Notes: generated by a model not told the origin, from the sequence alone. DNA of 64,000 bases from Candidatus Binatia bacterium (GCA_046754245.1 JBHHVL010000006.1:13859-77858); one strand, 5' to 3'; positions 55,384-59,290 are shown, counted from the first letter of the stretch. A program made the numbers and translations.

Positions 55384-56622
55384 ATGGCTGATATCAGTTT
55401 TCACGAGAGCGACGTTGTTTTCGAACGCGCGAAACGGGTCATTCCCGGGGGCGTATACGGACACCAGAGTCCAGCTTTGCTCACACCGGGCGAGTACCCT
55501 TTTTTCTTGGAGCGATCGGAAGGTTGTCGGATCCGCGACGTCGACGGAAACGAGTTTATCGACTTCCTGTGCGGCTATGGCCCGATGGTGGTCGGCTACC
55601 GCAATCCCGCGGTAGAGCGGGCCGCTGCCACCCAGCGGGAGCGATGCGACAGCATGAATCTTCCCGCCCCCTGCATGGTGGAGCTGGCAGAGCGACTCGT
55701 TGCTCTCAGTCCGGGTATGGACTGGGCTATGTTTTCGAAGAACGGATCAGACGTCACGACTTGGTCGTTGGCGGTTGCGCGGGTCGCCAGCGGACGCGAC
55801 ATCGTGGCGATGGTCGAGGGCACCTATCACGGGGTTCACGGCTGGTGCAACCATCTCCAGGCGGGATTTCCTGATTCGGATCGCCAGCAAATTGTGGAAT
55901 TCGACTGGAACGATCTAGGGGGTCTCGAGGCTCGTTTCCGTGAAAACCCTGGAAAGATAGCCGCCGTCATCATCACGCCCTTTCATCATGAGGCCTTTTC
56001 TGACTCGGTATTGTCCAAAGACGGTTTCCTCGAGGGCGTGCGCGACATCTGCAGCCGCGAGGGGAGTGTGATGATAGTCGACGACGTGCGCGCCGGCTTC
56101 AGGCTTAACATGGGCGGATCCACTCAGGCGTGGGGGGTCACACCCGACGTCCTTATCTACTCCAAGGCGCTGGCCAACGGTTACCCCCTGGCCGTGATGT
56201 TGGGTAACGATTCGTTGAAGGACGCCGGGCAGACCGTCTTCTATACCGGGACCTTTGCGACCCAAGCTGTGCCCATCGCGGCCGCGCTCGCGACCATCGC
56301 AGAGCTGGAACGCGTGGACGGCATCGCGCACATGGAACGCGTGGGGCGGCGTCTGTGCGACGGCCTGACGGCCCAGGCCACCGAAGCAGGTTTCGACGTT
56401 ACCATCAGCGGGCCGCCGGCCATACCCTTCATGACCTTCGACGCCGATCGTGGCGGCTTCGACCTCAGCCGCGCCTTCGCTGGAGCCTGCGTCAGACACG
56501 GGGTGTTCCTGCACCCCATACACAACTGGTTTCTTTCTACGGCTCACCAAGAGGCCGATATCGACGAGGCCCTGGCTGCGACCGAGCGGGCATTTGCCGA
56601 GATAGCCGACCGGCAGTCCTGA
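55384..56622 (+). CDS. class-III pyridoxal-phosphate aminotransferase (glutamate-1-semialdehyde aminomutase-like paralog)
   Basis: Class-III fold pattern: IDFLCGYGPMVVG, MIVDDVRAGFRL, and the PLP-lysine context YSKALANGYPLA. Confidence 0.8.
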   Translation: MADISFHESDVVFERAKRVIPGGVYGHQSPALLTPGEYPFFLERSEGCRIRDVDGNEFIDFLCGYGPMVVGYRNPAVERAAATQRERCDSMNLPAPCMVELAERLVALSPGMDWAMFSKNGSDVTTWSLAVARVASGRDIVAMVEGTYHGVHGWCNHLQAGFPDSDRQQIVEFDWNDLGGLEARFRENPGKIAAVIITPFHHEAFSDSVLSKDGFLEGVRDICSREGSVMIVDDVRAGFRLNMGGSTQAWGVTPDVLIYSKALANGYPLAVMLGNDSLKDAGQTVFYTGTFATQAVPIAAALATIAELERVDGIAHMERVGRRLCDGLTAQATEAGFDVTISGPPAIPFMTFDADRGGFDLSRAFAGACVRHGVFLHPIHNWFLSTAHQEADIDEALAATERAFAEIADRQS

Positions 56623-56630
56623 CGGTGGCC

Positions 56631-56981
56631 ATGCTGAGCGAGGTCAGCGGGAAGACGCTGCGGTTGCTACACCGTGGGCGCGAGTCGGGGCGATGCTATG
56701 AGGTCACCATATGGTTCGTGCGGGTGGATGGAAGCTTGTATATAGGCGCCCTAGACGATCGAAGGGCCTGGGTACGCAACCTTCGCGCTAACGGCGAAGC
56801 CGTAATCGACGATGCAGCTGCCCCCATCCGTTGCCGTTGCTTCGCCGTCGAAGACGCTGACACCCTGACGCTGTTCAGGCTAGCCGTACGAGACAAATAT
56901 CCGATCGTTTCGCGAGTAATGGCGCTTTTTGGCCGCCGCGGCCGTCGGCAGGCAGTATTTAGACTAGAGGAGGCCGAGTAA
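56631..56981 (+). CDS. DUF385 / deazaflavin (F420H2)-dependent nitroreductase-family oxidoreductase-like protein
   Basis: 116-aa split-barrel pattern LRLLHRGRESGRCYEVTIWFVRVDGSLYIGALDDRRAWVRNLRANGEAVID, matching the conserved core of DUF385/FDOR-A proteins. Confidence 0.6.
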   Translation: MLSEVSGKTLRLLHRGRESGRCYEVTIWFVRVDGSLYIGALDDRRAWVRNLRANGEAVIDDAAAPIRCRCFAVEDADTLTLFRLAVRDKYPIVSRVMALFGRRGRRQAVFRLEEAE

Positions 56982-56986
56982 GCCCG

Positions 56987-57319
56987 ATGCCAAGGCCAGT
57001 CCGCCATTTCTTCGTTTGTCACAACCGTCGGCCGCCGCTCGCACAGGGGTCTTCTTGCGGAGCAAACGGCGCCGATGACCTCGTATTCTCACTGCGGGCC
57101 GAAAGGGAAAGACGGGGGCTCAGCGCCAGCGTGTTCATCACCGCCACCGCCTGCCTGGGACCCTGTCCCGCCGAAGGCGCAACGGTCGTCGTCTACCCCG
57201 AGGGTACCTGGTACCGAGCCGTCACCAGCGCGGACGTCGAAGAAATAGCCGAATCTCACATGGCCAGGGGCGAGGTCGTGCGGCGACTTGTCGATCCAGA
57301 CTTTGAAAGCGAGACCTGA
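56987..57319 (+). CDS. thioredoxin-like [2Fe-2S] ferredoxin
   Basis: Four Cys in the arrangement HFFVCHN...GSSCGANG...TACLGPC, typical of NuoE-like/thioredoxin-like 2Fe-2S ferredoxins. Confidence 0.7.
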   Translation: MPRPVRHFFVCHNRRPPLAQGSSCGANGADDLVFSLRAERERRGLSASVFITATACLGPCPAEGATVVVYPEGTWYRAVTSADVEEIAESHMARGEVVRRLVDPDFESET

Positions 57320-57357
57320 TCAGCACCAAGAACCCCGAGCCCAGCAGGCCACGCGTT

Positions 57358-58422
57358 TCAGCTATCCGCCGCTACGCCATTGGCCACCAGATCGCCCACC
57401 TCAGCGGTGCTGAAGCCCATGCGCCCGGCCGCGAGTGACTTCAAATCCGTAGAAAGCACTTTGACCATGCTCCGCTCGACCAAGTCGGCGGCACGCGCCT
57501 CGCCGAGATGGACGAGCAGCATCTGCGCGGCAGCTATGGCGGCCATCGGGTTGATGACCCCTTTGCCGCTGTATTTGGGGGCCGAGCCGCCGATGGGTTC
57601 GAACATCGATACCCCTTGCGGATTGATGTTGCCGCCCGCGGCTATCCCCATCCCACCTTGTATCATCGCTCCGAGGTCGGTGATGATGTCGCCAAACATG
57701 TTGTCGGTTACGATGACGTCAAACCATTCAGGATTCTTGACCATCCACATGCAAGTCGCGTCCACGTGGGCGTACTCGCGCTTGACGTCCGGATAGTCGG
57801 CCTCTCCAACTTCGTCGAAACAGCGCTCCCATAGATCAAAAGCGTAGGTCAGTACGTTGGTCTTGCCGCAAAGTGTTAGCGTCTTGCGGCGGTTGCGCTT
57901 GCGCGTGTACTCGAAGGCGTAGCGAAGGCAACGTTCCACACCTTTACGTGTATTGATTGATTCCTGCACCGCTACCTCGTCAGCGGTGCCCTTGCGCAAG
58001 CTTCCGCCGGCGCCTGCGTAGAGGCCCTCAGTGTTTTCCCTCACGACCACGAAGTCGATATCATCAGGTCCCTTGCCGGCGAGCGGCGTCTCCACACCGC
58101 CGTAGAGCTTGACCGGTCGCAGGTTGATGTACTGGTCGAGTTCGAAACGAAGACGGAGAAGTATGCCCTTCTCGAGAATCCCTGGTTTTACCTCGGGGTG
58201 GCCAATCGCACCAAGAAGTATCGCGTCCAGACCCCGGAACTCCTCTATGGCCGAATCCGGCAACACCTCGCCGGTTCTCAAATAACGGTCACCACCAAAA
58301 TCAAACGCGGCGGTTTCGTACTCAAAGCCACATCTCTTGGCGGCGACCTCGAGGACCTTCAGCGCTTCGGCTACTACTTCCGGACCGGTTCCATCCCCTG
58401 CTATTACTCCGATCTTGTACAC
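57358..58422 (-). CDS. leuB: 3-isopropylmalate dehydrogenase (isocitrate/isopropylmalate dehydrogenase family)
   Basis: Family signature NMFGDIITDLGAMIQGGMGIAAGGN and N-terminal IGVIAGDGTGPEV. LeuB versus tartrate dehydrogenase cannot be resolved from sequence alone. Confidence 0.8.
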   Translation of the reverse strand: MYKIGVIAGDGTGPEVVAEALKVLEVAAKRCGFEYETAAFDFGGDRYLRTGEVLPDSAIEEFRGLDAILLGAIGHPEVKPGILEKGILLRLRFELDQYINLRPVKLYGGVETPLAGKGPDDIDFVVVRENTEGLYAGAGGSLRKGTADEVAVQESINTRKGVERCLRYAFEYTRKRNRRKTLTLCGKTNVLTYAFDLWERCFDEVGEADYPDVKREYAHVDATCMWMVKNPEWFDVIVTDNMFGDIITDLGAMIQGGMGIAAGGNINPQGVSMFEPIGGSAPKYSGKGVINPMAAIAAAQMLLVHLGEARAADLVERSMVKVLSTDLKSLAAGRMGFSTAEVGDLVANGVAADS

Positions 58423-58596
58423 TCGTTCCTCCCAGGCCCGCTACGCCAGTCCCGAGCCGTGAAATATTGCAGCAAAGGCCGTCACCTACAAGCTACAATG
58501 GAAGACTGGAACCGTTGATGTGTCTGGAGGAGAGGGCGGTTGAGAAGCTGATTCATGGCTGCCATAATCCTTTGATTCGAGCGCGGTACTTTTCAG

Positions 58597-58672
58597 GGCG
58601 GCGTACCCAAGTGGTTAAGGGAGGGGTCTGCAAAACCTCGATTCAGCGGTTCGAATCCGCTCGCCGCCTCCA
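58597..58672 (+). tRNA. tRNA-Cys (anticodon GCA)
   Basis: 76-nt cloverleaf. Acceptor GGCGGCG/CGCCGCC, anticodon stem GGGGT/ACCTC with loop CTGCAAA, T-arm AGCGG-TTCGAAT-CCGCT, discriminator T, encoded CCA, followed by a T-rich run. Confidence 0.85.
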
Positions 58673-58825
58673 TTTTTCTTTCTACGCGCCTCTCACACCC
58701 CTCTGGCGTGGGGGGCCGTGTATCCTCGCGCCAGCCAGGCGCAGCCCGTCGGCCAGCCGGCGAGACCGTTTTGCCACGGCCCGACAAGAGTCGGATGGTA
58801 GACGACGGCAAGGTGGACTAGTCAC

Positions 58826-59290
58826 GTGAATGTGAAGTTGTTTTCCGACCTGGAAGAGCGTTTCAAGAAGACGGTTGGACGTATCGTATGGTGTAGCGTC
58901 ACCACCACCGACCCACGGGGACGCTTGCGTTCACGCATCCTTCATCCTGTATGGGAGGGGTCGATCGGTTGGATCGCCACCGGCCGCCGATCACCCAAGG
59001 CGGCTCACATCAGCGCCAGCCCCTGGGTTTCTCTTTCCTACTGGGACCAACAGCACGAGCAGGTGCACGTCGAATGCCATGCGAGCTGGGAAGACAACCT
59101 CGGTGAAAAGCGGCGGGTATGGAATCTGTTCAAAGACACGCCGGCGCCGATGGGTTACGATCCCTCGCTATTCTTCAAGAACAGCGAGGATGGGGATTTC
59201 GGCCTCCTCAAACTCCTCCCCTGGCGCATTGAACTCTGGTCACTGCAAGAGCTAATGGCGGGAACTCGGCCCACCGTCTGGCGGCCCTGA
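58826..59290 (+). CDS. pyridoxamine-5'-phosphate-oxidase-like FMN/F420-binding split-barrel protein
   Basis: 154 aa from a GTG start; PNPOx/general-stress-protein-26-like pattern (RIVWCSVTTTDPRGRLRSRILHPVWEG...WRIELW). Confidence 0.5.
   Translation: MNVKLFSDLEERFKKTVGRIVWCSVTTTDPRGRLRSRILHPVWEGSIGWIATGRRSPKAAHISASPWVSLSYWDQQHEQVHVECHASWEDNLGEKRRVWNLFKDTPAPMGYDPSLFFKNSEDGDFGLLKLLPWRIELWSLQELMAGTRPTVWRP

Follow-up and report, generated by a model that had tools for sequence, protein, structure and literature searches.

A lineage-restricted operon of Binatia that couples a FumI-type aminotransferase gene to a gene for a compact Ddn/FDOR-A-type split-barrel protein

We analyzed a 64,000-nucleotide (nt) stretch of the genome of Candidatus Binatia bacterium (GCA_046754245.1, JBHHVL010000006.1:13859-77858), referred to here as the window, with a focus on three adjacent genes that encode a class-III aminotransferase, a small split-barrel protein, and a thioredoxin-like [2Fe-2S] ferredoxin. 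These genes belong to an operon that is restricted to one clade of Binatia and that brings together members of known protein families in an undescribed combination. The constant core of the operon is a gene for an aminotransferase of the FumI type followed at once by the split-barrel gene, and the two are probably translationally coupled. The split-barrel protein adds a new, compact variant to the Ddn family. An earlier reading of the DNA made from the sequence alone (the sequence-only reading) had remarked that the grouping is not a textbook pathway, and indeed no described pathway matches it.

In the window, the three genes have the layout of an operon. All lie on one strand with no terminator-like site seen between them, and the raw sequence bears out the very short spacers given in the sequence-only reading, as well as the coordinates of the four open reading frames (ORFs) that it discussed (Table 1; the fourth is a PNPOx-like gene, described below). 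The aminotransferase and split-barrel genes are separated by 8 nt (TGA-cggtggcc-ATG) and the split-barrel and ferredoxin genes by 5 nt (TAA-gcccg-ATG), with a Shine-Dalgarno sequence (GAGGAGG) before the ferredoxin gene. The earliest in-frame ATG of the aminotransferase ORF is at position 55363; public gene calls start at the ATG at 55384, which fits the orthologues. No riboswitch or leader RNA was found upstream (an Rfam scan of positions 53000..64000 returned only two tRNAs).

The unit is not peculiar to this genome. We inspected the genomic contexts of aminotransferase relatives and used an alignment of the aminotransferase to scan GTDB, each species being represented by one genome. The scan gave 80 loci, and all loci were then searched with local hidden Markov models (individual loci are cited by L numbers). 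The compact three-gene unit recurs in other genomes, where the same three proteins are encoded in the same order (tblastn identities of 57-66% for the aminotransferase, 36-49% for the split-barrel protein, and 47-60% for the ferredoxin). We take this conserved order as evidence that the three genes are real. Aminotransferases at least 57% identical to that of the window were found in 16 distinct genomes, in every one of which the split-barrel gene starts ~80 nt or less after the aminotransferase stop codon, often overlapping it. In a neighbor-joining tree these aminotransferases form one clade, apart from an SCP2-linked clade and a clade of Binataceae and Dehalococcoidia (see below for both), and no member of the clade lacks the split-barrel neighbor. 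The 16 genomes carry the labels Binatia, “Deltaproteobacteria,” “Myxococcales,” or “Limnocylindria.” We infer that they represent one lineage, because they have the whole neighborhood in common and because LeuB is ~80% identical in the loci compared (L005-L013). An apparent fusion of the aminotransferase and split-barrel genes in L025 was rejected as an artifact of stop-to-stop ORF calling, the two domains being in different frames.

The aminotransferase matches PF00202 with 141.9 bits (gathering threshold 30.5), as expected of a class-III enzyme. Its best solved relative is FumI of Sphingopyxis sp. MTA144 (PDB 6hbs), with an E-value of 3.1e-99, 336 bits, and ~45% identity over residues 13-407, essentially the full length, compared with an E-value of 1.9e-52 and at most 182 bits for the best solved HemL. 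The likeness to FumI includes the class-III fold, the region of the Schiff-base lysine (liyskalangyp in the query aligns with scwgkcfangyp in FumI, Lys on Lys, and K261 is invariant in 12 relatives), and the N-terminal motif PGG(V/M)YGH(Q/E)S, which reads PGGVYGHQS in the window protein and PGGMYGHES in FumI. HemL has a motif of the GGVNSPVRAF type at that position. The protein is below every NCBIfam cut-off, those of the HemL models included (TIGR00713, 215 vs. 527.3 bits; NF000818, 227 vs. 398; NF004856, 222 vs. 486), and no curated model exists for FumI-type aminopentol:pyruvate aminotransferases. The label “GSA-aminomutase-like” (GSA, glutamate-1-semialdehyde) used in the sequence-only reading is therefore misleading, given how much closer the protein is to FumI and that all HemL cut-offs are missed. 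Were the enzyme nonetheless a paralogue of GSA aminomutase, the module might serve tetrapyrrole metabolism. Two HemL models (NF000818 and TIGR00713) are among the best NCBIfam matches, Joint Genome Institute (JGI) annotations label aminotransferase relatives as GSA aminomutase, and some split-barrel relatives bind heme or glutamyl-tRNA reductase (GluTR). We rejected this reading, which we regard as very improbable, on the scores and the N-terminal motif.

FumI uses pyruvate as acceptor for the 2-amino group of its substrate, a long-chain 2-amino-3-ol (PMC3136697). The Binatia enzyme, which is only 45% identical to it, may likewise deaminate a 2-amino-3-hydroxy long-chain substrate with pyruvate. 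There are also differences. FumI is encoded in a fumonisin catabolic cluster together with the carboxylesterase FumD (PMC3136697), with no adjoining split-barrel or ferredoxin gene, and it is an outlier in the neighbor-joining tree, 45-48% identical to all three aminotransferase clades.

Outside the 16-genome clade, the pairing of aminotransferase and split-barrel genes disappears. Dehalococcoidia relatives of the aminotransferase have unrelated neighbors, and those of Binataceae (~54% identity) are encoded between a response regulator and an amidase. In Binataceae, a luciferase-like oxidoreductase and a canonical FDOR-A protein are encoded 2.5-4 kb from the FumI-like aminotransferase. The canonical protein, of the deazaflavin-dependent nitroreductase family, is exemplified by L033:8886-9371 on the minus strand (127 bits to PF04075 and 104 bits to TIGR00026), and equivalents are present in L030, L032, L035, L038, L039, L041, and L042.

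The remaining, sister clade of aminotransferases (44-51% identity; 23 loci, L061-L098) crosses phyla, spanning Thermodesulfobacteriota, Myxococcota, Opitutales, Bacillota, and Desulfobacterales, and is characterized by a gene for an ~270-aa SCP2-domain protein directly upstream (best examples L090:4054-8947 and L079:604-5419). Seven of these loci also encode a second SCP2 protein and a transketolase split into N and pyrimidine/C subunits, all within a tightly packed operon. Such a gene set has the look of a natural route to 2-amino-1,3-diols (sphingoid-like bases) by way of a transketolase and a transaminase. In the literature searched, we found no paper on such an SCP2-transketolase-aminotransferase cluster.

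Recognition of the 116-aa split-barrel protein required more than a comparison with curated models. The window copy is under the cut-offs of PF04075 (the DUF385 family; 21.4 vs. 22 bits), TIGR00026 (34.2 vs. 46.35), and DUF2255 (22.9 vs. 29.8), and a word-indexed search returned only the protein itself. An exhaustive HMMER search of 1.84 billion representatives revealed a small family, with 18 clusters below an E-value of 1e-10 and 131 below 1e-3. The profile of this family matches Ddn with an E-value of 3e-11, followed by eight more F420-type Ddn/FDOR chains and the uncharacterized Rv2991, and all of its significant matches (E < 1e-4) are to F420-type Ddn/FDOR proteins or Rv2991. Furthermore, PF04075 is matched by 26 of 31 relatives (E <= 0.01), and the orthologue in L005 passes TIGR00026 (56.6 vs. 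46.35 bits). Together, the Ddn match, the PF04075 matches of the relatives, and the L005 score establish homology to DUF385/FDOR-A even though the window copy is under the cut-off. The sequence-only assignment to DUF385 thus holds as a statement of kinship, whereas as a strict Pfam call it fails by 0.6 bit. The AlphaFold model (pLDDT, the predicted local distance difference test score, of 93.2) is a split beta-barrel of the Ddn/FDOR-A type, and F420-bound FDOR-A structures take the top Foldseek ranks. In L014 and L015, precomputed contig annotation assigns PF04075 to the split-barrel gene, and a second PF04075 protein, of 157 aa, is encoded 3 kb away.

Residues of Ddn that contact F420 include R54, T56, R60, Y65, A76, K79, W88, N91, and Y133 (PMC3267046), and we mapped the Ddn contacts onto the window protein via the profile alignment. 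R54 (R17 in the window protein), W88 (W47), N91 (N50), and Y130 (Y90) are kept, T56 is kept as Ser (S19), and Y65 is kept as an aromatic residue (W28). R60 (Y23), Y133 (V93), and Y136 (V96) are not kept. K79, which in Ddn touches both the phosphate and the deazaflavin (PMC3267046), has no counterpart, as the loop that carries it is four residues shorter. The protein does belong to the Ddn/FDOR-A lineage, but in a stripped-down form. Compared with Ddn (Rv3547) and the FDOR-A/DUF385 F420H2-dependent reductases MSMEG_2850, MSMEG_3358, Rv1558, and nfa33440, the Binatia family is shorter (106-125 aa), the protein lacks the N-terminal membrane-associated helix, and the two lost tyrosines, Y133 and Y136, are those of helix D. 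Its gene, moreover, stands beside aminotransferase and ferredoxin genes in a host that is not an actinobacterium. The heme-binding split barrels HutZ, HugZ, and ChuZ are larger or two-domain proteins and have no sequence-level likeness to the family (the profile search gave no match to them).

The ferredoxin aligns over its full length with Aquifex aeolicus Fd4 (PDB 1f37; E-value 3e-16) and Azotobacter vinelandii FeSI (5abr; 3e-15). With these and the Clostridium pasteurianum type it shares a length of ~110 aa and the pattern C-x12-C-x31-C-x3-C, in which Cys11, Cys24, Cys56, and Cys60 correspond to the ligand positions and are invariant in the six orthologues aligned. It differs in being under the NCBIfam equivalog cut-offs (NF041612, fdxn_Clost, 82 vs. 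150 bits; NF041613, 72 vs. 195), and the PF01257 profile, which the sequence-only reading had suggested for its identification, gives no match even at E <= 10. The four cysteines and the full-length matches nevertheless uphold its description as a thioredoxin-like [2Fe-2S] ferredoxin.

The ferredoxin gene is an accessory third member of the operon, the constant unit being the aminotransferase and split-barrel genes. It is present at nine of 14 informative orthologous loci (the window, L005, L007, L009, L011, L013, L016, L024, and, as a partial copy, L019) and absent from the other five (L008 = L023, L021, L022, L026, and L027); two further loci, at which the contig ends, were left out of this count. 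To our knowledge, no physiological partner has been established for this class of ferredoxin, and hence we found no precedent for its pairing with an FDOR-like protein. It had been proposed that the split-barrel protein and ferredoxin constitute a dedicated low-potential redox pair. This is doubtful, as the ferredoxin gene comes and goes, in contrast to the constant adjacency of the other two genes. In addition, F420 is an obligate two-electron carrier that cannot accept single electrons (bioRxiv 10.1101/2020.08.24.261826), so the one-electron [2Fe-2S] ferredoxin is unlikely to be a direct donor. That consideration, together with the patchy presence of the gene, argues against a dedicated pair.

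As for function, the explanation that we favor, tentatively and as somewhat short of an even chance, is that the two core proteins carry out consecutive steps, a transamination and a hydride reduction, on a single metabolite, which would be small, probably hydrophobic, and of the 2-amino-alcohol/2-ketone type. The aminotransferase would interconvert amine and carbonyl with pyruvate and alanine as co-substrates, as FumI does, and the split-barrel protein would reduce a neighboring activated group (C=C, quinone-like, or imine) by hydride transfer, for which F420H2 is the most likely source. The ferredoxin would not be an obligatory electron donor of the split-barrel reductase. A hydrophobic substrate is favored because the relatives of the aminotransferase in many phyla adjoin proteins with the SCP2 lipid-carrier domain, and F420H2 is the likely hydride source because all characterized Ddn/FDOR-A enzymes use F420 only (bioRxiv 10.1101/2020.08.24.261826). 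The F420 contacts that are kept in the window protein (R17, S19, W28, W47, N50, and Y90) support this explanation.

Several observations weigh against the favored explanation. The region from the rhomboid gene to leuB is wholly syntenic in the same genomes, and the adjacency of the core genes is therefore partly a matter of shared descent. At L014:1190-2825 and L015:675-2310, which represent one lineage of Binatia, the gene order is BolA, membrane protein, split-barrel gene (125 aa), and leuB, with neither an aminotransferase nor a ferredoxin gene, so the split-barrel protein can function without the aminotransferase. The window split-barrel protein is under every curated DUF385 threshold, with the K79 loop shortened and R60, Y133, and Y136 replaced. 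Genes for F420 biosynthesis (cofC/cofD/cofE/cofG/cofH, fbiC) are absent from the ~45 scanned genes of the window, a 64-kb portion of the genome, and nothing on F420 in Binatia/Binatota was found in the literature searched. Both the substrate (2-amino-alcohol/ketone) and the F420 cofactor are predictions. The suggestion in the sequence-only reading that the organism may make or use F420 thus gains nothing from biosynthesis genes in the window. It does gain from the canonical FDOR-A proteins of other Binatia genomes (TIGR00026, 104 bits), which, combined with the F420-only record of Ddn/FDOR-A enzymes, would lend indirect support to F420 use by Binatia.

Two alternatives dispense with consecutive, F420-dependent chemistry. 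The three genes could be neighbors through conserved core-genome synteny only, with the aminotransferase, split-barrel protein, and ferredoxin functionally independent of one another. That the flanking order (FG-GAP, CoA transferase, Urate_ox_N, DUF1329, MetH, rhomboid, leuB, and tRNA-Cys) recurs in the same genomes would then be the whole explanation of the arrangement, and the coming and going of the ferredoxin gene, the persistence of the split-barrel gene without the aminotransferase in L014/L015, and the quite different neighbors of the sister-clade aminotransferases are all compatible with this. However, synteny by itself does not lead one to expect an aminotransferase stop and a split-barrel start that overlap or lie a few nucleotides apart in most of the 16 genomes despite only 36-49% identity of the split-barrel proteins, nor a monophyletic clade of aminotransferases without an exception to the pairing, and the three genes share one strand uninterrupted by a terminator-like site. 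On balance, we find independence of the genes doubtful, although it has to be reckoned with.

Alternatively, the split-barrel protein could bind heme or flavin and take single electrons from the ferredoxin, as a heme-degrading or heme-handling protein of the HugZ/HutZ type or a small flavin reductase, with the aminotransferase acting on a related or an unrelated substrate. The ferredoxin gene is indeed only 5 nt downstream in the window and close by at nine loci, and, as F420 accepts no single electrons, a ferredoxin partner suits heme or flavin better. The deleted K79 loop and the loss of Y133 point the same way, and cofactor choice is scattered across the split-barrel superfamily and not predictable from sequence or structure (bioRxiv 10.1101/2020.08.24.261826). 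On the other side, the family profile finds Ddn/FDOR-A proteins and no heme binders, the contacts to the F420 tail and ribityl (R54, T56, W88, and N91) are conserved, and the ferredoxin gene is missing from five of 14 orthologous loci and from L014. The C-terminal axial histidine of HutZ and HugZ probably has no counterpart in the 116-aa protein, which is a further point against this reading. We consider a heme- or flavin-based function unlikely.

A more ambitious proposal is that the aminotransferase, the mini-FDOR paired with it, and the ferredoxin constitute a housekeeping pathway, so far unrecognized, by which Binatia synthesize or modify a sphingoid-like lipid, namely a long-chain 2-amino-alcohol. 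The 110-aa split barrel would then represent a new minimal class of deazaflavin/flavin reductase that can be fed by ferredoxin, and the sister SCP2/split-transketolase clade a transketolase-transaminase route to 2-amino-1,3-diols. This would provide the first defined partner for the enigmatic class of thioredoxin-like [2Fe-2S] ferredoxins, although we regard the proposal as a long shot. More soberly, if the pair acts on one substrate, as in the explanation that we favor, an operon conserved in the core genome of Binatia, an uncultured lineage widespread in soils and sediments, would receive its first function. The Ddn/FDOR-A family would also come to include a stripped-down form of 110 aa beyond Actinobacteria, and there would be indirect evidence for F420 use by Binatia. 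The kinship with FumI suggests that fumonisin-type amino-alcohol transaminases fall within a family that is much larger, crosses phyla, and has lipid-like substrates. Overall, nothing about the operon is radically new, and it is less a surprise than a well-defined subject for annotation and biochemical work.

Table 1. Operon genes and flanking features in the window (positions counted from its first nucleotide)
Feature	Position	Strand	Evidence or remark
Polytopic membrane protein, 271 aa, ~7 hydrophobic segments	54421..55236	+	Hydropathy
Class-III pyridoxal phosphate (PLP) aminotransferase, FumI (aminopentol:pyruvate) type, 412 aa	55384..56622	+	PF00202, FumI match
Compact split beta-barrel protein, Ddn/FDOR-A (DUF385) lineage, 116 aa	56631..56981	+	Small divergent subfamily
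Thioredoxin-like [2Fe-2S] ferredoxin, Aquifex Fd4/Azotobacter FeSI/Clostridium type, 110 aa	56987..57319	+	Accessory operon member
3-Isopropylmalate dehydrogenase, leuB	57358..58422	-	NF002898, 534 bits (cut-off 393)
tRNA-Cys (GCA)	58597..58672	+	Rfam 61 bits, ARAGORN; promoter-like site 58540..58568
PNPOx-like split-barrel protein, 154 aa, GTG start	58826..59290	+	PF01243; outside operon
tRNA-Leu (TAA)	59403..59489	+	Closes variable slot

The boundaries of the unit differ in how sharply they can be drawn. Downstream, leuB is convergent with the ferredoxin gene and is the boundary. Upstream, the gene for the membrane protein is a conserved neighbor, with which the operon may begin. The protein has no Pfam or NCBIfam match, and a word-indexed search returned only itself and one weak relative. 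By hydropathy and alignment, however, counterparts with 32-47% identity are encoded directly upstream of the aminotransferase in L005, L007, L011, L014, and L016. The membrane-protein gene overlaps the next gene in L005 and L016, whereas in the window the gap to the aminotransferase start is 147 nt. Generally, this poorly conserved protein is encoded in the same gene string upstream, sometimes with BolA and a DsbA-like lipoprotein. BolA and Coq4, which are operon neighbors in relatives, are both absent from the window. In L016:2270-3733 and L013:4568-6004, an extra gene (478-487 aa), also absent from the window, intervenes between the membrane-protein and aminotransferase genes. The L016 copy, which was the one scanned, has an N-terminal hydrophobic signal-anchor and a weakly DsbA-like C-terminal end (SCPLC, with CxxC), with no confident family match.

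The PNPOx-like gene, which the sequence-only reading had grouped with the triad, does exist and narrowly passes PF01243 (29.3 vs. 28.1 bits), although it does not reach the F420-specific PPOX model TIGR03618 (23 vs. 79). The grouping, on the other hand, did not hold up: the gene is ~1.5 kb beyond the triad, from which it is separated by the opposite-strand leuB and by tRNA-Cys, and it is followed by tRNA-Leu. It forms a unit of its own, and the locus in which it lies, flanked by two tRNA genes, is variable. A tRNA-Cys gene also follows leuB in L005, L007, L011, L013, L016, and L024, and the tRNA-Leu gene of the slot is also present in L007 and L011. In relatives, the slot between the two tRNA genes is occupied by Coq4 on the minus strand, a gene that the window has lost from it. 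Among the fetched loci, only L016 has a PNPOx-like counterpart (53% identity), which comes after Coq4.

The window as a whole is a housekeeping stretch, with genes for an Mrp-type antiporter, NadA, QueG, Lon, NusA/IF2/TruB, PNPase, purine genes, MetH, and LeuB. Positions 1..6000 have a strong positive AT skew (+0.14 to +0.30) over minus-strand genes for Mrp/Nuo-type antiporter membrane subunits (670..5192). The skew probably results from T-rich codons of hydrophobic proteins and is not a replication feature. Finally, metH (plus strand, end at 53563) and the rhomboid protease gene (minus strand, end at 53496) are convergent, with 3' ends that overlap by 68 nt, and an identical 68-nt overlap occurs in L007.

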